Source: an uncultured Candidatus Saccharibacteria bacterium (lineage in GTDB: Bacteria; Patescibacteriota; Minisyncoccia; 2-02-FULL-40-12). Taken from it: DNA of 64,000 nt. The notes beneath the pieces were generated by a model. That model worked only from the letters and a program-made list of their open reading frames with translations. It searched no databases and was not told where the DNA came from. Location: contig CAYIZI010000002.1 of NCBI GenBank assembly GCA_964368135.1, forward strand, positions 16,241 through 80,240, in the 5' to 3' direction. Both the position numbers and the translations under genes were made by a program. Positions 30,250-54,899 of the stretch are shown here, piece after piece (within the stretch, counting starts at the first letter, position 1; every line of letters starts with the position of its first letter).

Positions 30250-30253
30250 AAAA

Positions 30254-38600: not shown

Positions 38601-38616
38601 TTCTTTTGCCTATTTC

Positions 38617-39879
38617 TTATATGGAGGTATATTTTTTCTTATCTTTTAAAAATAAAGTTAAAGTAATCAAACTTACGATTGTTGAGGTAGCTATTCTTGA
38701 AACGACCGCCCCCCAAAGACCGAATTTAGGAATTAAAATAATAAAAAAACCAAGAAGAGAAAAATCATTAAGCACTTTTAAAAAATACAGTCTTTTAACC
38801 TCCACTTTGGCAAGCCAGATATAATTAATAAATGAAAACATTACGAATACAATCGGAAGGGCTAAAATGATCGAGTATTTGACTGATCCCACATAAGCCG
38901 GGAAAAAAAATCTATAAGCCCACGGAAGGATGGTTATATAACCGATAACAATAAAAACCCCAGCCAAAGTAGCGAATAATAATTTTCTCCCAATTGCAGA
39001 ATATATTTCTGGATAGCTTCTTTTAGCAAACCTCGGCAGAGCTATTTCCGGAACAATCTCTACAAGCCCCTGAAGTTTTCTAATTGGAAGAAGGGCAAAT
39101 TTATAAATAGCTAACTCTACCGGACCAACTAAATGAAACATTAAAAGCTGGTCTATTCTTTTAACTATAACGCCGGCAATATTCATGAAAGTTAAATGCA
39201 TTCCAAAACGTTTAGTTTCAGCAGAAACCTTTCTATTATTTTGATATTTTTTGATGATCCAAAATAGAAAAATAAAATAAGCTAAAGATGAAGGAATAAA
39301 ATATGCCAAAAGAATATAAGGCACATAACTTGTATTAAAAAGAACAATAATCATTACTGCCACTGAAACCGATGTCACTACAGAGTTTACTAAAGGTATT
39401 TTTGAAAATAAACCCTTTGCCCTTAAAAAGTTGTAAAGAATCTTTGATATTAAACTAAAAGGTAAAAAAATAGAAACAATTAAAAAAGATAAGGCAAACA
39501 TATTATTGCCCATTTGAAGATAATACAAAGTGAAGCCGAGAGCGATTAAAGACGAAATCAGACCGTATCTTAATTTATACTGAACCCCTCTTTGGAGTTC
39601 TCCTTCAAAACCCTGGGCCACGCTTTTTGTAACCGCATACGGAAGTCCGCTGATTGCAAAAACTGCAAAAATTTCAACCCACGTTTGAATAAGACTATAT
39701 GTTCCATAAGCAGCCTGGGGAATTAATCTTGCAAATGCTATTGCTTGAATAAATGCTCCAACGTTGGAAATAACCTGGTCCAAAACCGACCAAGAGCCTC
39801 CCTTTAAAACATAATGAAAATCAATGCCAGTGATTTGAGTAAACTTATCTATATAAAATTTTATCTTGTTTTTAAGCAT
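38617..39879 (-). CDS. Wzx-type polysaccharide/O-unit flippase (MOP superfamily)
   Basis: 420 aa with about 12-14 TM helices; N-terminal pattern typical of O-antigen/teichoic acid export proteins. Confidence 0.65.
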   Translation of the reverse strand: MLKNKIKFYIDKFTQITGIDFHYVLKGGSWSVLDQVISNVGAFIQAIAFARLIPQAAYGTYSLIQTWVEIFAVFAISGLPYAVTKSVAQGFEGELQRGVQYKLRYGLISSLIALGFTLYYLQMGNNMFALSFLIVSIFLPFSLISKILYNFLRAKGLFSKIPLVNSVVTSVSVAVMIIVLFNTSYVPYILLAYFIPSSLAYFIFLFWIIKKYQNNRKVSAETKRFGMHLTFMNIAGVIVKRIDQLLMFHLVGPVELAIYKFALLPIRKLQGLVEIVPEIALPRFAKRSYPEIYSAIGRKLLFATLAGVFIVIGYITILPWAYRFFFPAYVGSVKYSIILALPIVFVMFSFINYIWLAKVEVKRLYFLKVLNDFSLLGFFIILIPKFGLWGAVVSRIATSTIVSLITLTLFLKDKKKYTSI

Positions 39880-41263
39880 TAGTTTTTACTGAACCTAACA
39901 CATAAGAAGCTATTTTTTCGGCTGCCTTGCCGTCAAATTTCCAGCAGTAGGCCTGCTTAAAAACTTTCCTTTTGTCGCTGTCAAGCGAAGGGTCATCAAG
40001 ATATTTATTAATCCATTCAGCTAATTCTTCCTTATTCTTAACCAAAGGAGTCATCCCGAAACTCATCCAGGAAATTTGATTTTCTTCAAACCGCCATCTT
40101 CTTGGAAGGCTTCGTAGAAAGGGCACATCTTTTGGTTTTTCCCAGCCGTCAAAATTAATGGTAATCAACGGTTTATCAAATATTGATACATCAATAATAA
40201 TTGAAGACATAGAATTAATAATTAAAGAAGAATAATGCAAAGAGTCAAAAATATGCTGGAAAAAAGTTTCGTTATCCAGTTCGCCTTCTTTTTTGCCTTT
40301 CTCTAACTGGCTGGGTTTAGCCGGTCCGGGCGCATCAATTATAAAATTTTCGTCCGGCACAAATTTTGACAAATCAACCGGCAAAAAAGGATGGAGACGT
40401 ATAATAAACTGAACATCTTGAGGAATCTTTTTCTCCTTATATAAATCTTTCAATATTTGGCAGGTTTGCCAATCAGTATCAATAAAAAAATGGCCGGCCG
40501 GAGCGAATAAAATCAATCTTTTATTCGGATCGGCTCCTATTTTTTTATAGAAATCATCTCGCGGACTCGGTTTCATCTCCAAGTATTTTTCAAACTGGGG
40601 TATGCCGCTCAAACAAATAATATTTTCGCTGATATTGTGATACCTTAACATATCTTTTTTCATCACTTCATTGTGAACTATTAATTTGTCTGGAATAAAT
40701 CGCAGATAACCCACGGCTGTAGTGTTATCCCAAGACCGCAGCATAGCGACAGTTTTTATACCTAAATATTTAGTATTTTTAAGCAAAATTGAGTCGGAAT
40801 CATTAAAAACATCGGTCACAAAAACAATATCCGGATTATATCTATCAAAATAAACCTGGAACGGTCTGGGATTGTTTAATTTGTAATCAAGCCAGCGGAT
40901 AAATTTTTTAAACGGTGTGATGGGGGCAAAAATTTTCGTAAAAACAAGAGAAAAATAATATTTTGGTCTGTTCCCTACTTTCTTTAGGGCTTCCATTTTA
41001 TGAAACTTCATTACATTTGTATCAAGAAGCCATTCGGCCATTCTAATAAAAAACTTATTTCTCCCGCTTCTGATTTCCTGATTCAAATCAATTCCTTCAA
41101 CGATTACGTTGTCTTTTTGATAAATATCTCTAAAGTAATTTTCTTTGTCTTTAAAAACAAAAAGAACTACCCGTGCTTTCTTAGCCAAATTGTCTAAGAC
41201 GCCAGAATTTAAAATATTCTTGGTAACAAAAGGGTGAAAATTAGACAAAAAAATGGTTTTCAT
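39872..41263 (-). CDS. hypothetical protein (candidate glycosyl-/glycerophospho-transferase of the glycan cluster)
   Basis: 463 aa soluble ORF with no diagnostic motif. Its position between the flippase and the aminotransferase suggests a transferase. Confidence 0.3.
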   Translation of the reverse strand: MKTIFLSNFHPFVTKNILNSGVLDNLAKKARVVLFVFKDKENYFRDIYQKDNVIVEGIDLNQEIRSGRNKFFIRMAEWLLDTNVMKFHKMEALKKVGNRPKYYFSLVFTKIFAPITPFKKFIRWLDYKLNNPRPFQVYFDRYNPDIVFVTDVFNDSDSILLKNTKYLGIKTVAMLRSWDNTTAVGYLRFIPDKLIVHNEVMKKDMLRYHNISENIICLSGIPQFEKYLEMKPSPRDDFYKKIGADPNKRLILFAPAGHFFIDTDWQTCQILKDLYKEKKIPQDVQFIIRLHPFLPVDLSKFVPDENFIIDAPGPAKPSQLEKGKKEGELDNETFFQHIFDSLHYSSLIINSMSSIIIDVSIFDKPLITINFDGWEKPKDVPFLRSLPRRWRFEENQISWMSFGMTPLVKNKEELAEWINKYLDDPSLDSDKRKVFKQAYCWKFDGKAAEKIASYVLGSVKTNA

Positions 41264-42357
41264 AACAAACTTTTAACTTTGTTGATAATATAATCTTGCT
41301 CCTTTTTGGTTAAACTCGGGTAAAGAGGCAAAGTTATGGTTGAAAACCCAAGTTTTTCGGCAATCGGGAAGTCGCCTGGCTTAAAGCCAAATGTCTTCCG
41401 GTAATACGGCTCAAGGTGAATCGGATTAAAATGAATTGAGGTCTGAATACCGGCTTTTTTCAGTTCTTCCCTGATTTTATCTCGTTTCTCTGGCTCTACC
41501 CAAATTATAAACATATGATAAGCGTGTTTTGAATTTGGGACTTCTTTCGGAAAAAAAAGCCCATCTATATCTTTTAGTTTTGCCGCATAATACTTCCAAA
41601 GTTTTTTTCTTACTTGATATTGTTTGTCAATTCTCTTTAACTGGCCTAAAAGTAAAGCCGCCTGAAAACTGGTCAAAGAATACTTATAACCAAGCATGGT
41701 CATAAATCTGGCTTCGCCGGTTCTGACTACTCCGCCTTCGCCATATAATTTAAGTCTCTCGGCAGTTTCTTTATTATTTGATGTAGCTAATCCGCCTTCG
41801 CCAGAAGTAATATTTTTCGCCACATGAAAACTGAAACAGGCAGAAAAACTTTTTTGACCAGGCCTGATGCCGCCTCTCCTCGCCTCAATCGCATGGCAGG
41901 CATCTTCAATAATTTTCAATTTATACTTGTCGGCAGTCCTCTTTAAATTTTTCATATCAGCCATCTGGCCATAGAGATGAACCGGAATTATAGCTTTGGT
42001 CTTTTTAGTTATCGCTTTTTTTACTTTTGAAACATCAATCAAACCTGTTTCTGGTTCAACATCAACAAAAACCGGCTTGGCCCCGACATACAAAATCGCA
42101 TTACTTGTGGCGACATAAGATAAAGGGGTGGTAATTACTTCATCGCCTGGCCCCACTCCGGCCGCCAACAAAGAAACATGCAAAGCCGCTGTGCCGCTTG
42201 AATTTAAAACCGTGTCTTTTACTCCAAGATATTTGGCAAACTTTTCCTCAAACTCTTTTGAAATATTATTATAAGTCAGCCAGCCTGATTTGATGGCTTT
42301 GACTGCTTCTTTAATATCACTCTCGGTTATATATGGATTAAGAAATTGAATTTTCAT
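41260..42357 (-). CDS. DegT/DnrJ/EryC1/StrS-family PLP-dependent sugar aminotransferase
   Basis: N-terminal E..V.....SGW.T pattern and the active-site lysine region (SFHVAKNITSGEGG). Confidence 0.8.
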   Translation of the reverse strand: MKIQFLNPYITESDIKEAVKAIKSGWLTYNNISKEFEEKFAKYLGVKDTVLNSSGTAALHVSLLAAGVGPGDEVITTPLSYVATSNAILYVGAKPVFVDVEPETGLIDVSKVKKAITKKTKAIIPVHLYGQMADMKNLKRTADKYKLKIIEDACHAIEARRGGIRPGQKSFSACFSFHVAKNITSGEGGLATSNNKETAERLKLYGEGGVVRTGEARFMTMLGYKYSLTSFQAALLLGQLKRIDKQYQVRKKLWKYYAAKLKDIDGLFFPKEVPNSKHAYHMFIIWVEPEKRDKIREELKKAGIQTSIHFNPIHLEPYYRKTFGFKPGDFPIAEKLGFSTITLPLYPSLTKKEQDYIINKVKSLL

Positions 42358-43075
42358 TGGAAAAAATTAATAATTTATACTTTGATTTTTTTGATCCGCT
42401 TAAGAAAGTAAACCACTCCCCTGCTTTGGTCAAAAAATAACTGACAAAATTAGCGCCCAGGTGATGGAAAAGAAAACTGTCTATAAAATTAACCGGCCTG
42501 ACTTCTTGAAGCTTTAAATTATGATTACCAAATCGTTCCACCAATTCTTTGGACGTCTCAACCTCTTTGTATCCTAAGCCTTTTTGAAATTCCGGTACTT
42601 CTTCTGGAAAATACTCAAGTAAAAAAATTTGAGCGCCTTTTTTCATTCTTTGGAAATAATTTAAAAGTGCCTCCCGGGATTCTTTGGGCATATGGACATA
42701 TACTGTGGTCATCACGACTGCATCTGCATTCTTAACCGCTTCTTCAGCGGCCGGACTTGGAACTGGTCCTTCTAAAAACTCAACTTTACTCTTACTGCCG
42801 TGCTTTCGCCTGGCTATTTCAATATTAAAAGGAAAATCAAAACCGTAAATTTTAGCGCCATCGTCAATTATTCTGCTTAACGCCGATGTGTAATCACCTA
42901 CTCCGCAGCCAATATCAACTATTGTTTTTAAACCCTTAAAATCGTTTCTTTTAAATGCGCTGGTCCTGATTTCAAAAGCATATTTATCTTGCCATTTGTT
43001 ATTGTAATGACAAGGACTGTCGCTTTTTTCAGCCTTTTCCTGCCAGTATTTTTTTACCCCTTCGTAATTATACAT
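42338..43075 (-). CDS. class I SAM-dependent methyltransferase
   Basis: IVDIGCGVGDYT motif I. Confidence 0.6.
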   Translation of the reverse strand: MYNYEGVKKYWQEKAEKSDSPCHYNNKWQDKYAFEIRTSAFKRNDFKGLKTIVDIGCGVGDYTSALSRIIDDGAKIYGFDFPFNIEIARRKHGSKSKVEFLEGPVPSPAAEEAVKNADAVVMTTVYVHMPKESREALLNYFQRMKKGAQIFLLEYFPEEVPEFQKGLGYKEVETSKELVERFGNHNLKLQEVRPVNFIDSFLFHHLGANFVSYFLTKAGEWFTFLSGSKKSKYKLLIFSNENSIS

Positions 43076-43079
43076 TGTC

Positions 43080-44219
43080 TTATTTATTGATTACTTGATT
43101 ATAAACATCAAGATAAAATTTCGCGGTATGATCCCAGGTATTTTTGGCGGCTTCGGAAACAGAATTTTTTATCATTTCTTGGTGTAATTTATGGTTGCCC
43201 AAAATTTTTCTTATTGCTTCGGCAATTCCTTGAATATTATCTTCATCAACTAAAAATCCATTGTAGCCGTCTTTAACCACATACTCAGAGCCAAAGCCAC
43301 GAGTGGTGATTACCGGTGCTCCAGAAGCCTGCGCTTCGTAGTAAACCATCGGAAACCCCTCAAAGGCGCCATCTCTTGTTTGAGCCGCCAAAACCATAAT
43401 CGCGCATCGATTATATAGCTCTCGAAGCTGGTCATCGGTCACCCGGCCAACAAAATGAACTTTATTTTCAAGGTTGTGTTTTTTTATCAGCTCTATTAAG
43501 TAGTTAACAAATCCTTCGGCTGATTTCGTTTCACCGACGACTTTATAGTGTAAATTCGGAAATTCATTTTTTAACAAAGCCAGCGCCTGAATAGTCACAT
43601 CAGCGCCCTTTCTGGGTTTGACTCCGCCAACTGTAAATATGAAAGGCGGGTCTTCTTTTTTAACATTTTCCATCTGATAAAAAGTTTTCGGATCAACTCC
43701 GAATGGGATAAACTTCCAAAATTTCAGCTTAACTACTTGTTCTATTAATTCAATATTTTTCAACGAACCGGTAGCCACCAACGAGGCGCGCTTATACATT
43801 AATTTCATCAGTTGTCTTTTTACAAAATCTTTAGGACTGTATCCGCGGGGTGGCACTGAATAGGTTCCGGCAATGGTCAAAAAAAATGGAATTCCTAAAA
43901 AAACACTGGCTAAAGCCGCCCCTGGCGCAAACGGTTCCATCATACTATGAATACCGTCACAGCCGCGAAAATACTTTAGAGAGTTTAAAAAAACATTTAA
44001 TTGGGTTTTCAAATTAAAACTATTGTCTTTAGTCGGCAAGACTTTATGGATTTTTAAAGTATCATTCTCATTGCTGGCATCTTTTCTGGTTAAGACAACG
44101 GTATCTACTTGTTTTGCCGCCGATTCTATTATCCCTTTTGAATATCTGTCCCAGCCGCCATGTGAAGATAAAGATGAAGTCACGTATCCAATTTTAAGTT
44201 TTTGTTGCATACCATTCAT
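43080..44219 (-). CDS. glycosyltransferase family 4 (GT-B)
   Basis: C-terminal E..ASG.PVI donor-binding motif (YYEAQASGAPVITT). Confidence 0.7.
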   Translation of the reverse strand: MNGMQQKLKIGYVTSSLSSHGGWDRYSKGIIESAAKQVDTVVLTRKDASNENDTLKIHKVLPTKDNSFNLKTQLNVFLNSLKYFRGCDGIHSMMEPFAPGAALASVFLGIPFFLTIAGTYSVPPRGYSPKDFVKRQLMKLMYKRASLVATGSLKNIELIEQVVKLKFWKFIPFGVDPKTFYQMENVKKEDPPFIFTVGGVKPRKGADVTIQALALLKNEFPNLHYKVVGETKSAEGFVNYLIELIKKHNLENKVHFVGRVTDDQLRELYNRCAIMVLAAQTRDGAFEGFPMVYYEAQASGAPVITTRGFGSEYVVKDGYNGFLVDEDNIQGIAEAIRKILGNHKLHQEMIKNSVSEAAKNTWDHTAKFYLDVYNQVINK

Positions 44220-45189
44220 AAGTTTTTTTCAATCCTTCTGCTAATTTAGTTTTAGGCTCCCAACCGACATCTTTCTTAATTTGTTTAATTTCAGGGCATC
44301 TTCTTTGAACACTGCCAAAAGGCGCTGAATCTGATTTTACCCTTCTTGGTTTCCAGCCAGCTACTTTAAAAAGATTTTTAGCCAAATCTCTAATTTTTAA
44401 TTCCTCTGATGTGCCGATATGATAAGTTCTCCCATCTGTCTTCTTTGATTCCATAACCATAATCATTGCTTTCACTGCATCATCTATGTAGCAAAACGAG
44501 CGCGTATGGCTGACTCCATAAATTGGAAAAGGATCAACTTTTTTATTAATTCTTTTGATAAGTTCGGGAATTACATGGTCACTTCCCGCTCTTGGTCCGT
44601 AAAAATTATGAGGTCTGACGATAGACATCCTGAACTTATAATGATTAGCATAGTGAATTAAAAACTGCTCTCCTATCAGTTTTGTGCCAGCATAAGTCCA
44701 GCGGGGGTTATAAACATCGGAAACCAAAAGAGGAACACTTTCCGGAGTTGGCACCGGCAGCTTACCGAACAAATCTAAAGCTCCGGCATAAGCCTCATTT
44801 GAAGAAGTAAACAGAATTTTGGCATTCTTCTTTTTATTCTTTCTTATAAACCAATCAAGAATATTTATTAAAGTTAAGATGTTAATCCGCAAAACCTCGT
44901 GAGGTATTTTGTAAAAATACTTCGTCCCATTGATTGCCGCAAGATGATAAACATAGTCATAACTGGAACCCAATTTTTTTATTGATTTAGGATCAGTTAA
45001 ATCAGCTTTAATAAACTTAACCCCCGGTCTTTTCAGTAGATTTAGAAAGTATTTATCTGGTTTCCCGCGGAAAAAATTATCAACTAAAACCACTTCCTCG
45101 CCCAAATCCAAAAGGCGCTTTGCTAAATGATAACCGACAAATCCGGCTCCGCCGGTAATTAAATTTTTCTTTTTATTGTTATTATCCAT
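44194..45189 (-). CDS. NAD-dependent epimerase/dehydratase (UDP-glucuronate decarboxylase / dehydratase-like)
   Basis: ITGGAGFVGYHL Rossmann motif and YAGTK catalytic YxxxK. Confidence 0.7.
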   Translation of the reverse strand: MDNNNKKKNLITGGAGFVGYHLAKRLLDLGEEVVLVDNFFRGKPDKYFLNLLKRPGVKFIKADLTDPKSIKKLGSSYDYVYHLAAINGTKYFYKIPHEVLRINILTLINILDWFIRKNKKKNAKILFTSSNEAYAGALDLFGKLPVPTPESVPLLVSDVYNPRWTYAGTKLIGEQFLIHYANHYKFRMSIVRPHNFYGPRAGSDHVIPELIKRINKKVDPFPIYGVSHTRSFCYIDDAVKAMIMVMESKKTDGRTYHIGTSEELKIRDLAKNLFKVAGWKPRRVKSDSAPFGSVQRRCPEIKQIKKDVGWEPKTKLAEGLKKTYEWYATKT

Positions 45190-45191
45190 AA

Positions 45192-46088
45192 TTAACCGAA
45201 AATCTTTTTAAATTTTGATGAAATTTTTTGCCCCAGCAGTTTAAATAATCTGCTAAAACTTATATCTGACTGATAATGCCAGCCTGAAAACCATTCAGGC
45301 AACCCTTCTTCTTTTGCTTTATGAGTTGTATTAACGGCCAGAACCGCTTTGAATAATGCGTTATTGTGGCTGGCTGAGAAAGCCGATATATCCTTAGGTA
45401 AACAGTGCCCTCTAAATGATCTGCCATACCGGAGATAATTCCTGTTCTCAAACAGAAAATTTAAAATGTTATCGGGATTGACGCTGCTTTGTTGAACGGC
45501 ATTGCCAAACTCATTCACAAAAGCAATCCTGGTCGCATTCCATATATTTGACAGATATTTTATATAGGAAGCCTCTTCCGGTGTCCCTTCAAAAACTTTA
45601 TTGGCTTGGCCCTGCCATTTTTTCAGAAAACTCGGCTTCAATATGTTATTCCGCGCACCAATTGCAAGATAATATGGGTGGAAACATTCTTCCACGCCAT
45701 GTTTCTCATGTAAAAATTCCGGAACATAAAAATCAAAGTCAAGTTTTTGTAAATGCTTGGGTAAAACTGTGGAGCGTAAAATTATTCTGCCCTTAGCGCT
45801 TTTAACCGAGCCAAGAGCTTCTTTAATTAAAGAAATATCCTGATTACCTTTTTCATCAACCCGATCACCAACACAGACAAGATACCAAGTATTTTCACTA
45901 TCCTGCTCTAAAGCATTATTTAACGGCCTAATCTTTTCATAAGCCTTTTCGTAATTTGGATATCTCTTTTCTGGATTCACTATATCATAGTAAAAAACCG
46001 GATGACCCATCATCGTTAAAGCCAAAGCATTGGCCTGCCCGACCCAGCCATAACCAATAACCACAATTTTTTCTTTTGAGCCGGTCAT
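45192..46088 (-). CDS. nucleotide-sugar dehydrogenase family protein, short form lacking the C-terminal nucleotide-sugar-binding domain
   Basis: VIGYGWVGQANA (GxGxxG) and a catalytic Cys context GHCLPKD resembling UDP-glucose dehydrogenase GGSCFPKD. Only 298 aa. Confidence 0.45.
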   Translation of the reverse strand: MTGSKEKIVVIGYGWVGQANALALTMMGHPVFYYDIVNPEKRYPNYEKAYEKIRPLNNALEQDSENTWYLVCVGDRVDEKGNQDISLIKEALGSVKSAKGRIILRSTVLPKHLQKLDFDFYVPEFLHEKHGVEECFHPYYLAIGARNNILKPSFLKKWQGQANKVFEGTPEEASYIKYLSNIWNATRIAFVNEFGNAVQQSSVNPDNILNFLFENRNYLRYGRSFRGHCLPKDISAFSASHNNALFKAVLAVNTTHKAKEEGLPEWFSGWHYQSDISFSRLFKLLGQKISSKFKKIFG

Positions 46089-47779
46089 ATTAATTTGTTT
46101 CTCTCTAAATAATTAATGGTTTTTTTAACGCATTGATTAACATTTTCCTTATGAGTATCCAACCTTATTTGAGGACTTAACGGCCGCTCATAAGGGTCGG
46201 AAATCCCGGTAAAATGCTGGATTAATCCTTGGCGGGCTTTCTGATAAAGGCCTTTAGTATCTCGTTTCTCACAAATCTCAAGCGGACAATCACAGAAAAC
46301 CTCTATAAAATTCTTGGCTTCTTTTTTTGCCATTTCTCTGTGTTTTAGATAAGGAGAAATAAAAGAAGCGACAACGCCGATTGAATTTTTACTCAATAAA
46401 CCCGCCAAGTATCCGGCCCGTCTGATATTTTCATCTCTGTCCTCTTTTGAAAAGCCCAAGTCTTTCCCTAAGTACTGCCGGAAAATATCTCCGTCTAACC
46501 GTTCTGCTTTAATGCCGCGTCTTTGCAAGATCTCGTAAACTTTATTGGAAATCGTGGTTTTGCCAGCCTGGGAAAGCCCAGTAAACCAGAGAACAAAACC
46601 TGATTTAGAGTTTGAATTATCTTTATATATCCCGTCAACCAAGGCATTATTACTCATTGAAAGAAAATTGTAAATTTCAGGATAAATAAACCATTCTGGC
46701 GGCTCCTGCTTTTCTTTCAAATAATTTCTGAACATTGTCCCGCTGAAAGAAGTTTTCTGGGCTTTGGGATATGAATTTGTAAAACCGTGTTGAGTAAATT
46801 GAGGATAATAAACCACTTCTGGAAATTTCAGAATTTCTATACCGATTTCATCTTTTTTAAAATTACTGAATATTTCTTGGGCGGCAAAAGGCGGATAATA
46901 GCTGCCCACCCCGGCATGATCGCGGCCAACAATAAAATGGGTTGCCCCGTAGTTTTTCCTAACTAAGGCGTGCAAAGCCGCTTCTCTTGGCCCGGCGTAT
47001 TTCATTTTCAAAGGTAAAATGCCCAAAAATACCTTATTTGAGGGAAAATATTTATCGATTAATATCTGATAGGAGGCCAGGATATACTCGTCTTTGAAAT
47101 CGCCTACTTTCTTCTCGCCCATAACCGGCTGAATAAAAAGACCGTCGGTTAATTTAAGGGCTTCTTTTTGAACAAACTCATGACCGCGATGAGGAACGTT
47201 GCGAGTCTGAAATCCGGCCACTGTTTTCCAACCTCTTTTTTGAAATATCTTTCTTGTCTCGCTTGGAAAAAAATTATATTCCGGAAAAAGAGTTTTTGAA
47301 TTATCCAACAACAAAACCTCACCGCCGATTAAATATTTTTTCATTTTGTAGACATAAGCCACGCCCGGATGCTCTTTGTCTAATGTCTGAAAAACATTTT
47401 GGTTAAATTCTTCTTTGCTGAAAGGATAAATTTCAATATCCTTAAGAACGGCAATTAGTTTTTTATCAGAATCAATTAGTAAAACCAGTTTTTCTTTTCT
47501 TAATCTTTTTGAATCTTCTTCTGAAATATCCAAAACAATTGGAATCGGCCAAACCACTCCATTAATTAGTCTCATCTTTAAAAGAACACTCTTAAAATCT
47601 TTTTCTCTTAAAAATCCAATAAGCGGCGAATAAACGCCGTTGGCTATATTTTTTACTTCCTGAATCTGGTCTTTAGTTAAATTAAGAGATTTTAACTTTT
47701 TGGCTTTAGATAAAAATTCTTCTTTTTTTAAAGAAGATAAAACTTTATTTATCAATTTCCCGCCGTGCGGTTGAATCAT
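46085..47779 (-). CDS. bifunctional sulfate adenylyltransferase / adenylylsulfate kinase (PAPS synthase; Sat-CysC fusion)
   Basis: ATP sulfurylase QTRNVPHRGHEF motif in the N-terminal two thirds; the APS kinase P-loop GLSQAGKTT and downstream kinase motifs in the C-terminal ~180 aa. Confidence 0.8.
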   Translation of the reverse strand: MIQPHGGKLINKVLSSLKKEEFLSKAKKLKSLNLTKDQIQEVKNIANGVYSPLIGFLREKDFKSVLLKMRLINGVVWPIPIVLDISEEDSKRLRKEKLVLLIDSDKKLIAVLKDIEIYPFSKEEFNQNVFQTLDKEHPGVAYVYKMKKYLIGGEVLLLDNSKTLFPEYNFFPSETRKIFQKRGWKTVAGFQTRNVPHRGHEFVQKEALKLTDGLFIQPVMGEKKVGDFKDEYILASYQILIDKYFPSNKVFLGILPLKMKYAGPREAALHALVRKNYGATHFIVGRDHAGVGSYYPPFAAQEIFSNFKKDEIGIEILKFPEVVYYPQFTQHGFTNSYPKAQKTSFSGTMFRNYLKEKQEPPEWFIYPEIYNFLSMSNNALVDGIYKDNSNSKSGFVLWFTGLSQAGKTTISNKVYEILQRRGIKAERLDGDIFRQYLGKDLGFSKEDRDENIRRAGYLAGLLSKNSIGVVASFISPYLKHREMAKKEAKNFIEVFCDCPLEICEKRDTKGLYQKARQGLIQHFTGISDPYERPLSPQIRLDTHKENVNQCVKKTINYLERNKLI

Positions 47780-49449
47780 AGTTTATAAACAATAAAACCG
47801 CTTTGTTCAAAAATCTTGTCAAAATTCTGCTTATCTAAATGCCAACCCTGGTCTTTATTAGTATCCCAAATAATATAATCAACCCGGTATTTTTTCAATC
47901 TTTTTCCAAAATTATCTTTTCGGATCTCTTGAGCCACGGCGATGACTTTATTTATTTCTTCTTCCGGCAGCCGAGTCTCGTCTTTTAATTTAAGACCTAA
48001 CAATCTCCGCCATTTGTTGGCCTGGACCGCGTCGCCATATTTATCCGCATATCGAACTCCCCAAATCGCCCTCTCGTTTTCAAATACAAAGTCTCGATCA
48101 AGCTCTTCAAAAAAATTATTTAAAATAAAGCGCTCCTGGATTTCAGTATCAGACATTATAAACAAATTAGCATTACGGGAATAATAAACATTATTGGCCG
48201 TATATACCGGAAGAAAACTTGAAATTTCTTCATTGGCGTAAACAACCGAATCAAAAGTAGTATTTTCATTAAACCAATCAAAAACCGTTTTATATTTCTG
48301 GCTATAAATAGCTTGGTCTGAAATCCTTAAAGTTTTATTTACATAATCATTGACTCCCTGGAAAACAAAAAAGCCAATAATCAATAAAAATACTCCTCGC
48401 CAAATATTGTTCAAATGAAATTTACTTGTCGAAGCAAAAAGATAGTAAAGAGTAAAAACCATAAAAAATATTGCCAACATTCGGTAGTGGCCGAATTCGA
48501 ACTTTTGGCCGGTAATAATATTCTGGTTGGTAACTATTAAAATGGAAACAATACCAGCAATAAAAAATAAAATCTCTTTGTTTATTCTGATGGTTTTCAA
48601 CCGATGCAAAACTCCTATCAAAAGCAAAACTATCAATGATAGAGCAACTGTTTTGATTTCAGACGGCGAACGAGAAAAAACCAATTGAAGACGGGTTAAG
48701 GTCTCTTGATACTCTGGGAGTTCGGCTGCTAAAAAAGTAAAGTAAAAATAAACAGAACCAATAATTAGACCGCCGATTAAAATTTTCAAAAATTGCTTTG
48801 ATAGTAATCTATCTCTGAAAAAAGAGATAAAAACTAAAATGACTAAAAATACTAGGTAAAAAGTCCAATAAAAGGGATAGATATAAAATAAGAGTCCAAA
48901 ATTTATAATATTTAATGGTAAAATCCATTTTTTAGGACGATCCTTAATAAGGAGCCAAAGCAAAGTAAATTGGGTTAGCCAAAATAAAAATACGAACTGA
49001 GGAATAATCGGCCGGGTAAATTTAAAAATAAAAATTCCGAAAAACAAAAAAACGGCAAAAATATTAGCCCAAAATTTTGAAGGACGTATTAAATAAAAAG
49101 CTATGTAAGTTAGAATAAAAACAGTAGCCGGAAGAATAAAACTGTAAAGTATCCTTCCTTGAACAACCGAAAGATTTAAAAATTTCAACGGCTGGGCTAA
49201 AAGAAATTCGGGCAAAAATAATTGTTGGGGCAGTTGATTTTTATGTTCGGATAAATAGGCATTGCCTAAAGTTGGATGGCCATCTATGACGTCTTTAATT
49301 CTAGCCAGATAAAAGAGCTCATCATCTATGATTTGAGGCAAAATTCCTTTATACTCACCACCCAGTGAAATCTGAAAATAAAAAAACGGCAGAATCATTA
49401 AAAAACCTAAAACTAAAGCTATAATTAAAATTGGCCAATGATTTTTCAC
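47776..49449 (-). CDS. polytopic membrane protein, GT-C-like glycosyltransferase candidate (partner of the DPM-synthase-like GT2)
   Basis: 557 aa with about 12 TM helices and a C-terminal soluble region. 4-nt overlap with the GT2 gene. Confidence 0.4.
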   Translation of the reverse strand: MKNHWPILIIALVLGFLMILPFFYFQISLGGEYKGILPQIIDDELFYLARIKDVIDGHPTLGNAYLSEHKNQLPQQLFLPEFLLAQPLKFLNLSVVQGRILYSFILPATVFILTYIAFYLIRPSKFWANIFAVFLFFGIFIFKFTRPIIPQFVFLFWLTQFTLLWLLIKDRPKKWILPLNIINFGLLFYIYPFYWTFYLVFLVILVFISFFRDRLLSKQFLKILIGGLIIGSVYFYFTFLAAELPEYQETLTRLQLVFSRSPSEIKTVALSLIVLLLIGVLHRLKTIRINKEILFFIAGIVSILIVTNQNIITGQKFEFGHYRMLAIFFMVFTLYYLFASTSKFHLNNIWRGVFLLIIGFFVFQGVNDYVNKTLRISDQAIYSQKYKTVFDWFNENTTFDSVVYANEEISSFLPVYTANNVYYSRNANLFIMSDTEIQERFILNNFFEELDRDFVFENERAIWGVRYADKYGDAVQANKWRRLLGLKLKDETRLPEEEINKVIAVAQEIRKDNFGKRLKKYRVDYIIWDTNKDQGWHLDKQNFDKIFEQSGFIVYKL

Positions 49450-50147
49450 TTTTTAAACTTTAATTTAAATGGCAGCCAAATTGCCTCCCAAATGTTTTTG
49501 AAAGACATCTTTGACTGGCCCTCTCTTCTTTCGTTAAAAATAATCGGATGTTCGGAAATTTCGTAGCCGGCTTTAAAGATTTTGTATTTAAATTCAACCA
49601 AAAAAGCATAGCCCTCTGATTTTATTGAATCTAAATCAACATTTTTTAATATATCTTTGCGAAAACACATAAAGCCGGTGGTCAAATCATGAATTGGCAC
49701 GCCAAGGATTGTTCTGGCATAAAAGTTGGCGAAGCGGCTTAAAAGTTTCCGTCGCAAATCCCAGTTCTCAATCTTACCATCTTGAACATAGCGAGAACCA
49801 ATAACTATGTTATGCCCTGATAACTTTTTCACCATTTCCGGCACTTCTTTATGGTCATGAGAAAAATCGGCATCCATCATTACCACCGTTTCAAAGTTTT
49901 CTTCGTTTATTATTTTTTTGAAGCCATCGAGGTAGGACTTGCCAAAACCCTTATTGTTAAATCTCTGGTGAAGGGCCAGTCGCGGAAATTTATCCTGCAA
50001 CCCTCTTACGACCTCGGCCGTGCCGTCAGGCGAATTATCATCTATTACCAAAATCGAAACTTCGGGATGATGTTCAAAAATACTCTGCGTCAAAGAAGAG
50101 ATATTCTCTTTTTCATTGTAAGTCGGAATAATAATTAAGATTTTCAT
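49446..50147 (-). CDS. GT2 polyprenyl-phosphate sugar synthase (dolichol-phosphate mannosyltransferase/ArnC-like)
   Basis: IIIPTYNE...DDNSPDGT...DAD motifs typical of DPM1/ArnC-type GT2. Confidence 0.75.
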   Translation of the reverse strand: MKILIIIPTYNEKENISSLTQSIFEHHPEVSILVIDDNSPDGTAEVVRGLQDKFPRLALHQRFNNKGFGKSYLDGFKKIINEENFETVVMMDADFSHDHKEVPEMVKKLSGHNIVIGSRYVQDGKIENWDLRRKLLSRFANFYARTILGVPIHDLTTGFMCFRKDILKNVDLDSIKSEGYAFLVEFKYKIFKAGYEISEHPIIFNERREGQSKMSFKNIWEAIWLPFKLKFKK

Positions 50148-50190
50148 CCCTATTCTTGAATTACATTACATATGTAATATAATTCAAGAG

Positions 50191-51375
50191 TCAAATTTTA
50201 TTGATTATAAACTCTAAAATTTTTTCTGCTCTTTTCTGCCAGGTATAATTTTGTACGTCCTTAAAAGCATTTCTGCTTATTTTTTCGGCCAAATCTGAAT
50301 TCTCTAAAATCTTTTTTATGCCGGCAACAAAACCACTTAGATTTTCTGATTTTACCAAAACGGAATTCTCTTCATTAAGTACTTCTCTGACGGTTGGCAA
50401 ATCAGTGGCCACAATCGGTCTTTTTGAGGCCATATACTCAAAAAGCTTTAAAGGCGACATATAAAATGCATAGTGCTGTATATTCGGAAAGGGCATTATT
50501 AAAATATCAAAAGCTTTTAAATAAACCGGAATTAAATTATGCTTAATCCGGCCAACAAATAAAATCCGCTCATTTAAATTCTCTTTTTCACTTAATTTTT
50601 TGTAATAATCTATATCTTTTTTAATTCCGCCGACTAAAACAAGGGTGCAATCTTTTGGTAAAAACTTGATAGATTCAATCGCAAAATCAACCCCCTTTTT
50701 CATGCCCATTGTTCGGAGTTGGCCGACATAGCCAATAAGGATTTTATCCGGCGGCAAATTCAATTTTTTTCTTACCTCTTCTTTGGAAACATCTATGTCA
50801 AATTCTTCTAAATCAACCGCGTCTGGAGCAACTAAAATATTTTCCGGACCGAAACCAAACTTAACAAACTCATTTTTTAAGTTATTAGTAATAACGATAA
50901 TTTTTAGATTAAGTTCCTTAAATCTTCTATAAAAACGAATTACCGCTCTGCTTTTTGAAAAACGATGAGCTTCAAAAAAAATGTTTTTTTTGAAAAAACT
51001 TAAAAAATATAAGGGCAGCTCGTCTCGGGAATAAATAAAATCAGCTCGGTAAAAAATTGCATAAAAGGTAACGAAAACTGCCGAAATAAAGCTTTTTATA
51101 AAAAAGGATAATTTATCTGATTTCCCAGGTAAGTAAAAATCAATGGCTGGAATTTTTTTAATCCTGAAATTCTTCTTAACTCCGTAATAAGAAAAAAGGT
51201 CCTCTTTAACAGGATTAATTCTAAAAGGATATACGAGTTTCACTTCAATGCCTTTTTGGGCAAGAGCTTCGCAGGTTTTTGAGATTTGAAGCCCATATGC
51301 TTTTTCAGTCGGCAGCCTTTGATTAACTAAATAGAAGAGCTGTTTTCCCATTTTTTTAAATTTTTTGCTATCCAA
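50191..51375 (-). CDS. glycosyltransferase family 4
   Basis: GT-B C-terminal domain (PIVATDLPTVREV). Confidence 0.65.
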   Translation of the reverse strand: MDSKKFKKMGKQLFYLVNQRLPTEKAYGLQISKTCEALAQKGIEVKLVYPFRINPVKEDLFSYYGVKKNFRIKKIPAIDFYLPGKSDKLSFFIKSFISAVFVTFYAIFYRADFIYSRDELPLYFLSFFKKNIFFEAHRFSKSRAVIRFYRRFKELNLKIIVITNNLKNEFVKFGFGPENILVAPDAVDLEEFDIDVSKEEVRKKLNLPPDKILIGYVGQLRTMGMKKGVDFAIESIKFLPKDCTLVLVGGIKKDIDYYKKLSEKENLNERILFVGRIKHNLIPVYLKAFDILIMPFPNIQHYAFYMSPLKLFEYMASKRPIVATDLPTVREVLNEENSVLVKSENLSGFVAGIKKILENSDLAEKISRNAFKDVQNYTWQKRAEKILEFIINKI

Positions 51376-52067
51376 TTGCTTGCCTTTAGCAACGAATCAA
51401 AAGATGAACCAGTATCCACCCATTGGCCATTTATAGTTTCGTAAAAGAGCCGGTTTTCTTTTAGATATAAATTATTCAAATCGGTAATCTCTAGTTCTTG
51501 GCGCTTTGAAGGTTTTAATTTTTTTATTTTCTGAAACACGTCATTGCTGTACAGATAAAAACCAGTAACCGCGTATTTTGATTTTGGCTTTTTCGGCTTT
51601 TCTTCTATCCTGATTATTTTTTCATGACTGTTAAATACCGGAACGCCGAAATTGTGCGGGTCTTTTACTTTTTTCAGAAAAACCATGGCCCCGCCTTTAA
51701 AACTCTTAATCTCTTTTTGAAAGCTTTTTGTATAAAAATTATCGCCTAAGATTACGGCGACATTATCCCCTTCGGCAAAATATTCGGCGTAACTCAAAGC
51801 GTCGGCAATACCGCCGTCATTTTTATCCTGCAAAGCAAAAGATAATTTAACTCCGTACTCTTTTCCGGAACCCAAAAAATTCATAAAGTGCCCGGCATGC
51901 TCTCTTCCGCAGACAACCATTATATCAGTCACGCCGGAGTTTCTAAGGGTCTGTAAGGAATACAAAATCATCGGTTTGTCATAAACCGGCAGTAAATGCT
52001 TATTAGTTATCAGGGTCAGCGGTTGTAACCGGGTGCCTAAGCCGCCGGCCAGAATCACGCCATGCAT
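51327..52067 (-). CDS. rmlA: glucose-1-phosphate thymidylyltransferase
   Basis: MHGVILAGGLGTRLQPLT signature. The start is taken at the internal ATG that overlaps the rmlB stop (ATGCAT...TAA); the track ORF is extended to 52124. Confidence 0.8.
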   Translation of the reverse strand: MHGVILAGGLGTRLQPLTLITNKHLLPVYDKPMILYSLQTLRNSGVTDIMVVCGREHAGHFMNFLGSGKEYGVKLSFALQDKNDGGIADALSYAEYFAEGDNVAVILGDNFYTKSFQKEIKSFKGGAMVFLKKVKDPHNFGVPVFNSHEKIIRIEEKPKKPKSKYAVTGFYLYSNDVFQKIKKLKPSKRQELEITDLNNLYLKENRLFYETINGQWVDTGSSFDSLLKASNWIAKNLKKWENSSSI

Positions 52068-52069
52068 AT

Positions 52070-53104
52070 TTATTTCTTGATATGCGGATTTAAGGCCTCT
52101 TTCTTTTTTATGGCCTTCATCCAATCCTGGTTTTTAACATACCAATCAATTGTCTTGTAAAAAGCATCTTTAAATCTGTATTGCGGCCGCCAGCCAAGTT
52201 CTCTTTTAATTTTTGCCCAGTCCAGCGAATAGCGGCGGTCATGCCCGGGCCGGTCAGCGACAAATTCTATCCAGGCTTCATCTTTGCCAAAATAATTTAG
52301 GATCATTTTGGCTATTTCCAGATTACTTCTTTCATTATCGGCTCCGATATTATAAGTTTCTCCCGGTTTCCCTTTGAGCAAACAGGCTTCAATTCCCCGG
52401 CAATTATCTAAAACGTAAATCCAGTCGCGCATATTTTTACCATCTCCATAAAGCGGTAATTTCTTATTTTCCAGCATTCTTAAAATGAAAAAGGGAATCA
52501 ATTTTTCCGGATACTGATAAGGGCCAAAATTATTGGCGCTGTGAGTGACTATTACTGGCACGCCCCAAGTTTTCCAGTAAGAGCGGCACAAAAGATCGCC
52601 TCCGGCTTTGGTGGCGGAATAAGGATTATTTGGAGCAAAAGAAGTAGTTTCTTTAAATTTATTTTTTGACCCTAAATCAATGGCTCCGTAAACCTCATCA
52701 GTAGAAATCTGGACATACTTTTTAACCCAAGGAGAATTTTTAACTGCTTCAAGCAGATTGTGGACGCCGACAATATTGGCCTGAATAAATCCAAGCGAAC
52801 CATTGTGAATGCTTTTATCAACGTGGGTGGCCGCGGCGAAATTTACGATATAATCCGGCTTATGTTTATTGATAACTTCACGAAGATTTTGGAAATCGGA
52901 AATATCTCCTTCAACAAATTTATACTTTTTGTTTTTCTCAATATCCCTTAGATTTAACTTGCTGCCTGAATAATTTAAACTGTCTAAATTTATGATTTTA
53001 ATCCGCGGATATTTAGAGAGAATATAACGGATAAAGTGAGAACCGATGAAACCGGAGCCGCCGCTAACAAGAATAGTTTGATTATTAAAATTTGTATTCT
53101 TCAT
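52070..53104 (-). CDS. rmlB: dTDP-glucose 4,6-dehydratase
   Basis: SGGSGFIGSHF Rossmann motif and catalytic YSATK; 344 aa. Confidence 0.8.
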   Translation of the reverse strand: MKNTNFNNQTILVSGGSGFIGSHFIRYILSKYPRIKIINLDSLNYSGSKLNLRDIEKNKKYKFVEGDISDFQNLREVINKHKPDYIVNFAAATHVDKSIHNGSLGFIQANIVGVHNLLEAVKNSPWVKKYVQISTDEVYGAIDLGSKNKFKETTSFAPNNPYSATKAGGDLLCRSYWKTWGVPVIVTHSANNFGPYQYPEKLIPFFILRMLENKKLPLYGDGKNMRDWIYVLDNCRGIEACLLKGKPGETYNIGADNERSNLEIAKMILNYFGKDEAWIEFVADRPGHDRRYSLDWAKIKRELGWRPQYRFKDAFYKTIDWYVKNQDWMKAIKKKEALNPHIKK

Positions 53105-53113
53105 ATCTAAAAA

Positions 53114-54283
53114 TCACAAGCTTCTCAAAAATTTTTCCAATTTCCTGGCCACGACCCGATGACTATATTTAACCAGCATATATTCCCGGCCCTCCTCGCC
53201 CATTTTCTTTCTAACTTCTGAATTTGAAGCTAAACGAATCATCGCTTGGGCCAGGGCTTGAGGATTTTTCGGTTCTATTAAAACTCCGGTCTTGCCATCA
53301 AGGACAGCTTCGCTTATCGCTCCGATTTTTGTAGAAATTACCGGCAAACCACTGGCAGATGCTTGAAGAATTGACCAACCATACTGCTCCTCCCAGCCCT
53401 GTCTTGGTTCGGATGGATGAACAAAAATGTCACTGGAAGCCAAAATCGGCGGGAGCTGGTCATTGGGCAGCCATTCAATAAACAAAATTTTATCTCCCAG
53501 AGAAAGCTTTCTTGCCAACTCCCTGGCCTCCTGCCAAAGCGGACCCATTCCTATCATTACCAAGTGAGATGAGGGAACCTGTTTAACTACTTTACTAAAA
53601 GCCTTGATAGTTGTAAATACGCCTTTTCTTTCATCAAACACAGCTCCGAAAAGAAAAACTACTTTATTTTCTAAATTATACTTTTTTCTAAAATCATTGG
53701 GGATATCAGGTTTAAATAAATCTGAGTCAACTCCTGATTGAGGAATAACTTCGGTTCTAATTATTGAATTCAGATAAGGCTTTAAAACATCGTAAGCCTG
53801 TTTTGACCCGCATAAAGCTCCGGCGCTTAAATTAATATTTTGTCTTATCAAGCATTCTTTAATTTTTAATTTTGGCCCGCTGGCTATTTCAGGATAAGGA
53901 AGATTCTGCCAGGTTAAAAAAACATGTTTTAGGCCGAGTTTCTTGCAAAGCCGGCTATATAAATATGTAGTCAGTAAATACGGCTCGGCCGAACTTAAAA
54001 GCACGTCGCCAGGTTTTGAAAGCTTTCTCAAAATTGTGCCTAAATTCGGCATCCAAGCCTTTAACAGGCCTCCGATAATGGGATAGCGTGAGTGATAAAA
54101 AGGCGCCCAGGCAGGAATTATAGAAAAATCAGAACTTTGCGGAGGCTTAACTATTAACTTGCCGCCTTTGGCCTTCCAAATTTTTGGTAAAATAAAAACC
54201 AGATCTTCTTTGTTTGTAAAATAATCAAAAACACGAAGGTGCCGTTCATAAATGTATGTGTATGATGGAATGAATATGGCCAT
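53114..54283 (-). CDS. glycosyltransferase family 4
   Basis: GT-B C-terminal motif (QASASGLPVISTKIG). Confidence 0.7.
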   Translation of the reverse strand: MAIFIPSYTYIYERHLRVFDYFTNKEDLVFILPKIWKAKGGKLIVKPPQSSDFSIIPAWAPFYHSRYPIIGGLLKAWMPNLGTILRKLSKPGDVLLSSAEPYLLTTYLYSRLCKKLGLKHVFLTWQNLPYPEIASGPKLKIKECLIRQNINLSAGALCGSKQAYDVLKPYLNSIIRTEVIPQSGVDSDLFKPDIPNDFRKKYNLENKVVFLFGAVFDERKGVFTTIKAFSKVVKQVPSSHLVMIGMGPLWQEARELARKLSLGDKILFIEWLPNDQLPPILASSDIFVHPSEPRQGWEEQYGWSILQASASGLPVISTKIGAISEAVLDGKTGVLIEPKNPQALAQAMIRLASNSEVRKKMGEEGREYMLVKYSHRVVARKLEKFLRSL

Positions 54284-54284
54284 T

Positions 54285-54899
54285 TTATTTATTTAATCTC
54301 TCCAAAACAAAAAAATGGTGGAAAGGCGATTCAGGATTGATATAATCTTTTAAAATTTTAAAGCCGACTTGCCTGATTTCTTTTTTAACTTTTCTTAAAG
54401 AATAATTATGCTTGCCTATTTCCCAGTAGTGCTCGCCGTCAAACTTATGTTTAACTAACCCAGAAATTTTGAAAAAAATTTTAATCCTCTTTATTAGCGG
54501 TGCCTTAAAAATCGCGTAAAAAGTCCAACCCCAATGAGGCAAAGAAATCACGGCGTATTTTTGGGAAATCCTTTTTATCTCGCTTAAAGCTTTTCTAAAA
54601 TTTTCATAGGGTAAATGTTCAAGAACCTGAAAACAAACTACCAACTCAAAAGAACTGCCTTTAAAAGGAATGTCCAAAACACTGCCGACCACATCGGGTT
54701 TTCTTTCGGGATTAATGTCCAACGAAACAATATCTATACCTGATTTCTTTAAATAGTCATATAAAAACCCATTGCCCTTCCCGATTTCGAGAACGCTTGA
54801 TGGATTTAAATTAAAAACCTCTCTGGCTTGATACCAATAGCTCATCCAGCGATGCTCGTGGTCATAATTTTTGGGATTAAAATGGTCCTTATCGGTCAT
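54285..54899 (-). CDS. class I SAM-dependent methyltransferase
   Basis: VLEIGKGNGFLYDYL motif I. Confidence 0.55.
   Translation of the reverse strand: MTDKDHFNPKNYDHEHRWMSYWYQAREVFNLNPSSVLEIGKGNGFLYDYLKKSGIDIVSLDINPERKPDVVGSVLDIPFKGSSFELVVCFQVLEHLPYENFRKALSEIKRISQKYAVISLPHWGWTFYAIFKAPLIKRIKIFFKISGLVKHKFDGEHYWEIGKHNYSLRKVKKEIRQVGFKILKDYINPESPFHHFFVLERLNK

Follow-up and report, generated by a model that had tools for sequence, protein, structure and literature searches.

A gene cluster for glycan synthesis extends from about 10.4 kb to past 63.9 kb of a 64,000-nucleotide stretch (hereafter the window) from an uncultured Candidatus Saccharibacteria bacterium of the Candidate Phyla Radiation (CPR; assembly GCA_964368135.1, contig CAYIZI010000002.1). 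According to our analysis, this supercluster probably carries its own sulfation branch, in which a bifunctional ATP sulfurylase/adenosine 5'-phosphosulfate (APS) kinase delivers 3'-phosphoadenosine 5'-phosphosulfate (PAPS) and a sulfotransferase (ST) sulfates a surface glycan. An initial annotation had proposed that the PAPS made by this fused enzyme, the PAPS synthase, is consumed by the ST encoded 30 kb away. Co-location of the two functions in relatives among CPR bacteria and DPANN archaea, replacement of a gene slot in syntenic clusters, and the motifs and fold of the ST all lend support to this proposal; from them we infer that the window ST is the consumer and that its acceptor is a glycan.

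The PAPS synthase and its operon

All 56 substantial open reading frames (ORFs) of the window were annotated with Pfam, and the coordinates of the features under discussion are collected in Table 1. The PAPS synthase is encoded by an uninterrupted, full-length ORF of 564 aa and displays the Pfam domains PUA_2 (residues 2-159, E 4e-50), ATP-sulfurylase (167-374, E 2e-78) and APS_kinase (394-541, E 9e-57). It passed the NCBIfam domain models sopT (390 bits, cut-off 323) and apsK (TIGR00455; 217 bits, cut-off 138.7) but did not reach the whole-protein equivalog NF004040 for the bifunctional enzyme (503 bits, cut-off 669), and was thus placed with the bifunctional enzymes by architecture and kind without being called an equivalog. 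The best match among solved structures was the bifunctional SAT/APS kinase of Aquifex aeolicus (2GKS; PAPS synthase residues 24-561, E 1e-121). Alignment with this protein showed that the sulfurylase motifs QTRNVPHRGHE, AGPREA and VGRDHAG (VGRDHAGVG) were kept, as were the kinase motifs, namely the P-loop GLSQAGKTT, LDGD, GFSKEDRDENIRR, SFISPY and KGLY. These intact motifs, together with the alignment, indicate a catalytic kinase domain, unlike the degenerate, regulatory one of fungal enzymes. The Sat-CysC fusion, first recognised from its QTRNVPHRGH motif and C-terminal APS kinase P-loop, was therefore confirmed by domain order, alignment and the complete set of catalytic motifs, and synthesis of PAPS in the cytoplasm by the fused enzyme is a well-supported prediction. 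What the window enzyme shares with that of A. aeolicus is its domain order (PUA-like, Sat, C-terminal APS kinase) and every catalytic motif, whereas the setting differs, being the sulfur metabolism of a chemolithotroph in one case and a CPR glycan operon in the other. Homologues of the window enzyme with the same architecture and about 60% identity number in the thousands, those with a name belonging to Nealsonbacteria and Kuenenbacteria.

The gene is part of a co-directional array of 22 genes separated by gaps of at most 43 bp, with many 4-bp overlaps. The array encodes seven glycosyltransferases of family GT4, one GT2, one GT-C, two Wzy_C proteins, Wzx, a glycerophosphotransferase, DegT, RmlA/RmlB-like proteins, an epimerase, methyltransferases and the PAPS synthase. 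Part of it reads, in order: a 557-aa membrane protein, the PAPS synthase, a truncated NDP-sugar-dehydrogenase-like protein, the epimerase, a GT4, a methyltransferase, DegT, the glycerophosphotransferase, Wzx and a protein of unknown function. The start codon of the PAPS synthase overlaps the stop codon of the upstream membrane protein gene in an ATGA tetranucleotide, and its stop codon overlaps the start codon of the downstream dehydrogenase-like gene in the same manner. Such overlaps with both neighbours suggest that the PAPS synthase is translationally coupled to glycan-assembly genes, and they are in agreement with its earlier placement inside a biosynthetic glycan cluster.

The sulfotransferase

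The ST gene (GC content 0.35) is monocistronic, is preceded by an AT-rich region and followed by a GC-rich hairpin, and diverges from the gene for a NeuB-family protein across 75 bp. Its 295-aa product matched Sulfotransfer_1 (E 2.5e-22; 79.9 bits, gathering threshold 22) and Sulfotransfer_3 (E 7e-17; 62.8 bits, threshold 27), and it has no hydrophobic segment, hence a predicted cytoplasmic location. For the ST as for the PAPS synthase, strong domain matches on full-length, uninterrupted ORFs argue against chance motif matches.

The best sequence matches in the PDB were the bacterial ST 3RNL (E 5e-25) and the heparan-sulfate 3-O-sulfotransferases (3-OSTs) 3-OST-1, 3-OST-3 and 3-OST-5 (E 3e-21 to 1e-15). 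GPERSGTTW, which the initial annotation had read as a PAPS-binding motif, is present and aligned, as the 5'-phosphosulfate-binding motif (5'-PSB), to GVRKGGTRAL of 3-OST-1; the 3'-phosphate-binding motif (3'-PB), RNPIERLYSHY, aligned to RDPSERVLSDY, so that both motifs were found aligned and conserved. The catalytic Glu of 3-OSTs is carried by the EKTPAY segment. In the window ST, GEFTPIY aligned to this segment of 3-OST-1, and its E83 is the candidate catalytic Glu, at identity levels of 21-25%. Among 57 homologues of the ST family, down to 31% identity, residues G13, R112, P114 and S120 were invariant and T19, E83, N113 and R117 were at least 90% conserved.

The AlphaFold2 model of the ST (pLDDT 92.3) was compared with known structures by Foldseek, and the top 50 PDB matches were all sulfotransferases. 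The closest were 3RNL, heparan-sulfate 3-OSTs and the sulfotransferase domain of NDST (TM-score 0.65-0.83, E 1e-15 to 1e-10), while tyrosylprotein (TPST), cytosolic (SULT) and polyketide STs appeared only at E >=1e-6 and TM-score <0.55. This proximity to glycosaminoglycan STs argues for a saccharide acceptor. The likeness to 3-OST-1, 3-OST-3, 3-OST-5, the NDST domain and 3RNL includes the 5'-PSB, the 3'-PB and the Glu-containing E-x-T-P-x-Y segment; however, the 5'-PSB of 3-OSTs has a Lys where the window ST has an Arg (PERSGTTW), and the C-terminal 90 residues or so of the latter are family-specific and unlike 3-OSTs. Owing to the low identity, the protein was classified as working like a carbohydrate O-sulfotransferase and not as a member of the 3-OSTs, and its resemblance to them does not imply a glycosaminoglycan acceptor.

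No second ST was detected in the window by the jackhmmer ST profile. ORFs 37404-38600 and 18952-19686 were considered as PAPS consumers and rejected, as they gave no match, or a weak AAA_33 match alone, even at E <= 1. The latter ORF (minus strand, 244 aa), for which the AAA_33 (P-loop kinase-like) match was below threshold, is kept as paired copies in the related locus L112.

Gene neighbourhoods in relatives

Scanning of GTDB species-representative genomes with the PAPS synthase yielded 80 loci, with a best match of 63% identity. Loci at least 50% identical belonged to Patescibacteria of several lineages and to two Aenigmarchaeota (DPANN), the latter at 62-63%. The relatives' loci were searched with the ST profile and a broader jackhmmer profile, weaker matches being confirmed by Pfam. 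Counts were based on an unbiased set of 12 loci found via the PAPS synthase alone, with at least 50% identity and at least 4 kb of flank; three metagenomic loci ascertained via both proteins (L005, L007 and L097) were left out of them. In this set, four loci had an ST at most 2.3 kb from the PAPS synthase, six had an adjoining CysQ-type 3'(2'),5'-bisphosphate nucleotidase, and nine had one or the other as a neighbour; a PAPS_reduct neighbour occurred once (L016). CysQ removes 3'-phosphoadenosine 5'-phosphate (PAP), the by-product of PAPS-consuming reactions.

Distances between ST and PAPS synthase in these loci range from 4 to 2,220 bp, with three STs flanking the PAPS synthase in L008, two downstream in each of L009 and L011, and a further case in L022. 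Among the three loci kept apart, the gene order is Bac_transf, PAPS synthase, ST and Wzx, then NeuB, an acetyltransferase, aminotransferases (DegT) and a CMP-synthetase in L005; Bac_transf, PAPS synthase, Wzx and two STs in L007; and PAPS synthase followed by ST in L097. Among 125 neighbouring ORFs from nine loci surveyed with Pfam, the predominant products were epimerases/dehydratases, methyltransferases, radical SAM, Inositol_P, Sulfotransfer_3, DegT, NeuB and GT4 proteins. Fusion ORFs of the PAPS synthase with a GT4 (P0029) and with an NDP-sugar-dehydrogenase-like protein (P0074) were also encountered inside glycosyltransferase operons. In L099 and L107, from unrelated metagenomic bacteria, classical CysDN and CysC accompany several STs.

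The closest ST homologues (72-78% identity; L093, L095 and L111) reside in clusters syntenic with window positions 33-60 kb. Synteny comprises an epimerase, PfkB, a B12-radical SAM protein, an unknown 398-aa protein, the glycerophosphotransferase, DegT and a first GT4 (GT4_a) on one side, and GT4_b, the methyltransferase MT_d, GT4_d and GT4_e on the other. The slot between GT4_a and GT4_b is occupied by epimerase, ST and GMC-oxidoreductase in these relatives, and by epimerase, dehydrogenase-like protein, PAPS synthase, GT-C and GT2 in the window. In L112, an ST (52% identity) overlaps an SIS gene in an operon syntenic with window positions 14-32 kb. Slot replacement and L112 synteny together point to the ST as a regular member of the glycan supercluster, in both of its modules.

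A rough neighbour-joining tree of PAPS synthases, calculated without support values, separated three groups: CysH-linked enzymes, CysQ-linked enzymes of Heimdallarchaeota, and CPR/DPANN enzymes including that of the window and all ST-linked members. A pair formed by CysQ and a fused Sat-CysC PAPS synthase (42-44% identical to that of the window) was observed in nine loci of Heimdallarchaeota or unclassified archaeal metagenome-assembled genomes (MAGs; L025-L035), one of which (L028) also had an ST and a CMP-synthetase nearby. The PAPS synthases of Aenigmarchaeota (L009, L011) and Patescibacteria (L008, L010) are equally similar to that of the window (62-63%), with downstream STs in both groups, and this distribution suggests cross-domain transfer of a PAPS synthase-ST module among ultra-small episymbionts. 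Judged from these gene neighbourhoods, the predicted sulfation trait is widespread in public CPR/DPANN assemblies and not peculiar to the window.

In six further loci from Aminicenantes and 'Eubacteriales' MAGs (L059, L060, L062, L064, L069 and L072), a segment of about 200 aa lies between Sat and APS kinase. It matches the ST jackhmmer profile (E 1e-14 to 1e-19), which may reflect either cross-matching of a P-loop or a true domain insertion.

Proposed pathway and alternative explanations

In the proposed pathway, the fused enzyme would use two ATP in the cytoplasm to activate sulfate, first to APS and then to PAPS, and the soluble ST would move the sulfuryl group from PAPS onto a sugar hydroxyl. 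Candidate acceptors would be a nucleotide-activated sugar or an undecaprenyl-pyrophosphate-linked repeat unit begun by the Bac_transf enzyme. Sulfation would precede flipping of the unit by Wzx, and Wzy-like and GT-C proteins would then polymerise or attach it outside the cell, the outcome being a sulfated surface polysaccharide or glycoconjugate. The recurrence of NeuB and CMP-synthetase genes among the neighbours makes an ulosonic-acid-containing unit a candidate.

Several observations weigh against this pathway. The genes for the ST and the PAPS synthase lie 30 kb apart on opposite strands, and the former has a transcription unit of its own amid genes with a GC content of 0.31-0.56. None of the four closest ST loci (L093, L095, L111 and L112) has a PAPS-synthesis gene within 10 kb of the ST, although these loci can also be taken to mean that the two functions need not adjoin, as in the window. 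Neither a CysQ-type PAP phosphatase (Inositol_P in Pfam; phmmer with CysQ) nor a recognisable sulfate transporter or permease family (Pfam) was found in the 83.5 kb searched. This search region corresponds to the window plus two 10-kb extensions, i.e. record positions 7,640-91,173 of a 97,952-bp contig of ENA assembly ERZ1292643 that encodes the identical PAPS synthase protein, the window itself being approximately the reverse complement of record positions 17.5-81.5 kb. The absence of cysH noted below likewise refers to these 83.5 kb of the 98-kb contig. Furthermore, a PAPS_reduct gene is located 3.5 kb from the PAPS synthase of L016, which belongs to the same clade as the window enzyme, and the tree that defines this clade lacks support values.

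An acceptor unrelated to the cluster, such as a lipid, a small metabolite or a protein tyrosine, or consumption of the PAPS by an ST encoded outside the window, with the ST at 15458 acting in an unrelated pathway, is the first alternative and an unlikely one. Acceptors cannot be read from sequence, the gene has a transcription unit to itself within a region of mosaic composition, PAPS synthase genes are missing near its closest homologues, and sulfolipids and sulfated peptides are bacterial precedents (PMC4216712 for RaxST). However, the fold is nearest to that of glycosaminoglycan STs, with TPST, cytosolic SULTs and polyketide STs scoring far lower, the gene was found amid glycosyltransferase, Wzx or nucleotide-sugar genes in every relative examined, and it is the sole ST of the window.

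It also appears improbable that the PAPS synthase serves assimilatory sulfate reduction, supplying a CysH and a sulfite reductase from other parts of the genome, and that its position in the glycan operon is incidental. Such a role is conceivable in relatives, as a PAPS_reduct gene directly adjoins the fused PAPS synthase in two Levybacteria (L041, L042) as well as in L038 and L053 (a Tepidisphaerales MAG and a gammaproteobacterium), besides the more distant case of L016, and the search for CysH, CysI and CysJ covered 83.5 kb of this genome. Against this, neither Pfam nor phmmer with Escherichia coli proteins detected CysH (PAPS_reduct), sulfite reductase, CysI, CysJ, CysD or CysN in those 83.5 kb, which extends the initial observation that the window has no CysH or sulfite reductase, and none of the roughly 100 loci examined contained a sulfite reductase homologue. 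The CysH-linked enzymes fall into a different clade, with 37-40% identity to that of the window; a housekeeping assimilation gene would moreover not be expected to be coupled in translation to glycosyltransferase genes or to have recurrent ST and CysQ neighbours. The accompanying assumption that CPR genomes lack assimilatory sulfate reduction was consistent with the contig searched but not universal, since the PAPS_reduct genes of Levybacteria, and that of L016, show that this premise is not general.

The L016 gene itself (15205-15885; Patescibacteria MAG H51-bin334_1, from the same well) matched PAPS_reduct at E 9e-34 and is situated in a glycan-type cluster with epimerase, NeuB and DegT genes, 3.5 kb from a CysQ-PAPS synthase pair. 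It could provide sulfite for a sulfonated sugar, in which case this relative may use a sulfoquinovose-type route, or serve plain assimilation. For the window, a sulfoquinovose-type route based on sulfite and a short-chain dehydrogenase/reductase enzyme was rejected, as it contains no PAPS reductase; the epimerase at 44194-45189, considered as a UDP-sulfoquinovose synthase, matched over the Rossmann motif only (residues 8-43; 25 bits, cut-off 575).

Fungal (Penicillium) fused Sat proteins have an APS-kinase-like domain that is inactive and regulatory. The presence of Penicillium structures (1I2D/1M8P) among the matches and the score below the equivalog cut-off (503 versus 669 bits) might suggest that one activity of the window enzyme is likewise non-functional, the protein making APS alone or running in the ATP-forming direction, but this is very improbable given the intact GLSQAGKTT, LDGD, SFISPY and KGLY motifs, a best match to the catalytically bifunctional Aquifex enzyme, the passed apsK model (217 versus 139 bits) and the adjoining CysQ of relatives, which implies turnover of PAP and hence of PAPS.

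Other components of the cluster

Table 1. Coordinates of the principal features in the window
Feature	Position	Strand	Basis
22-gene co-directional glycan array	37404..62685	-	Pfam; intergenic gap list
Bifunctional ATP sulfurylase/APS kinase (PAPS synthase), PUA - Sat - CysC	46085..47779	-	Pfam, NCBIfam, 2GKS alignment
Soluble PAPS-dependent ST, carbohydrate-ST-like	15458..16345	+	Pfam, motif alignment, AlphaFold2 and Foldseek
557-aa membrane protein, GT-C fold	47776..49449	-	AlphaFold2 pLDDT 95; Foldseek matches DPY19, STT3/PglB, AftA, ArnT
Truncated nucleotide-sugar dehydrogenase-like (UGDH-like) protein	45192..46088	-	Pfam, NCBIfam
Wzx-type flippase (Polysacc_synt)	38617..39879	-	Pfam
Initiating polyprenyl-phosphate glycosyl-1-phosphate transferase (Bac_transf)	12677..14044	+	Pfam, NCBIfam
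NeuB-family ulosonic/nonulosonic acid synthase	14354..15382	-	Pfam, NCBIfam
CMP-ulosonic acid synthetase (CTP_transf_3, PseF-like)	23685..24398	-	Pfam, NCBIfam

The 557-aa membrane protein encoded upstream of the PAPS synthase matched no Pfam or NCBIfam family and has more than 1000 homologues. Its model and the Foldseek matches led to the rejection of a transporter or an ST in favour of a GT-C-fold glycosyltransferase, and it is probably a polyprenyl-phosphate-sugar-dependent glycosyltransferase or an oligosaccharyltransferase-like enzyme. The protein looks like a member of an uncatalogued GT-C family in CPR glycan clusters.

The downstream UGDH-like protein has kept its N-terminal (NAD-binding) and central (catalytic) domains, including the catalytic Cys of GHCLPKD, and is devoid of the C-terminal nucleotide-sugar-binding domain. 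In P0074 (L110:314-2743, JGI contig), a protein truncated in the same way forms a single ORF with a PAPS synthase. Nevertheless, the two genes were not retained as a conserved pair: no homologue adjoins the PAPS synthase in the GTDB loci and the P0074 version is 26% identical to that of the window, suggesting a recurring architecture instead.

The Wzx gene adjoins PAPS synthase and ST in the relatives L005, L007 and L014, and a Bac_transf homologue is located directly upstream of the PAPS synthase in L005 and L007. Three Wzy_C (O-antigen ligase/polymerase-like) proteins were observed in the window (10397-12643, 54896-56953 and 56934-58211, minus strand), two of them fused to C-terminal TPR repeats. 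Their co-occurrence with a single Wzx and a single initiating transferase suggests that polymerisation or ligation can end in several ways within one cluster.

The region from 14 to 35 kb can be regarded as a sugar-precursor module, with genes for NeuB, the CMP-ulosonic acid synthetase, HAD phosphatases, an SIS isomerase, a PfkB kinase, a cytidylyltransferase, thiamine pyrophosphate (TPP)/E1 enzymes, two B12-radical SAM proteins and methyltransferases. The module carries an ST both in the window and in L112, and NeuB genes were found again near a PAPS synthase or ST in L005, L010, L011, L014, L016, L035 and L112. The TPP enzymes (28221-32056, minus strand) consist of E1 alpha/beta (transketolase-like) subunits and an acetolactate-synthase-like protein; they are kept in L112 and bring to mind the enzymes that add two-carbon branches in pathways for branched-chain sugars. 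Both B12-binding radical SAM proteins (21851-23620 and 35272-37353, plus strand) are encoded on the strand opposite to their neighbours, with high GC content, and a homologue recurs beside PAPS synthase or ST clusters in L010, L093, L109 and L111. Their probable role is that of sugar C-methyltransferases.

The GC content of individual genes between 14000 and 37400 formed a mosaic ranging from 0.31 to 0.56 (cupin 0.56, radical SAM 0.52-0.53, AAA_33-like 0.50, alpha/beta hydrolase 0.32, cytidylyltransferase 0.31), whereas it was uniform (0.32-0.40) in the remaining cluster. This gene-by-gene variation suggests a piecemeal horizontal acquisition of sugar-tailoring genes.

With regard to the host, homologues of SecA (5508-8096) were 72-81% identical, all named ones coming from Patescibacteria or the Parcubacteria group, and SecA proteins of Yanofskybacteria and Paceibacterota were 63-67% identical. 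In the contig flanks, peptidoglycan genes are found together with genes for an aminoacyl-tRNA synthetase and for large PG-binding or TPR proteins. The host is a Parcubacteria-type bacterium from Hainich groundwater, and its assignment to the CPR holds.

Relation to known systems and significance

Dedicated PAPS synthesis is provided by NodPQ for the sulfation of Nod factors by NodH in rhizobia, and by CysDNC in the sulfolipid pathway involving Stf0 in mycobacteria. In both systems, a pathway-linked PAPS supply is found beside a carbohydrate ST (PMC6192434, PMC8205485), and this placement is what they share with the window. They differ in that NodPQ and CysDNC use a GTPase-coupled CysD/CysN sulfurylase, as opposed to a homo-oligomeric Sat type fused to CysC and a 3-OST-like ST, and in that NodH and Stf0 act on a lipo-chito-oligosaccharide and trehalose, respectively, as opposed to a presumed Wzx/Wzy-type polymer. 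The xss (synechan) cluster of Synechocystis also shows STs (PF00685/PF13469) among many glycosyltransferases, Wzx and Wzy, and its product is a sulfated extracellular polysaccharide (PMC8205485), as predicted here. However, the published description of xss lists no PAPS synthase, which is an operon member in the window, and the host here is a CPR bacterium, whose product is a prediction. The xss authors were not aware of comparable ST genes in exopolysaccharide clusters of other bacteria (PMC8205485).

Sulfated glycans had been described in the initial annotation as uncommon in bacteria and undescribed for CPR. The second part stands, since no account of sulfotransferases or PAPS synthesis for glycans in CPR, Patescibacteria or Parcubacteria was found in full-text literature searches. 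The first has to be qualified: sulfated polysaccharides are reported on genetic grounds from cyanobacteria (PMC8205485), and sulfated glycoconjugates have been detected chemically in extracellular polymeric substances from mixed microbial communities and sludge, the bacterial pathways being not well known (PMC10483923). The parts of the system are standard and its design is known from NodPQ/NodH and the cyanobacterial xss cluster; what is new is the lineage.

A more speculative extension, which we consider doubtful at this stage, is that the PAPS synthase-ST module, with or without CysQ, is a horizontally shared trait of episymbionts (CPR and DPANN Aenigmarchaeota) that sulfates ulosonic-acid surface glycans or glycoproteins, resulting in a polyanionic, glycosaminoglycan-like coat for host attachment or ion scavenging. 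If this were true, a sulfated prokaryotic nonulosonic or ulosonic acid would represent a new sugar modification.

The fused PAPS synthase and the soluble carbohydrate-type ST form a compact two-enzyme set suited to heterologous expression. In metabolic reconstructions from CPR MAGs, a match to sat/cysC should not by default be counted as sulfate assimilation. Almost nothing is known of the surface chemistry of CPR and DPANN organisms, which live attached to hosts. This locus and its relatives offer a testable candidate pathway for a sulfated surface polymer in these lineages.

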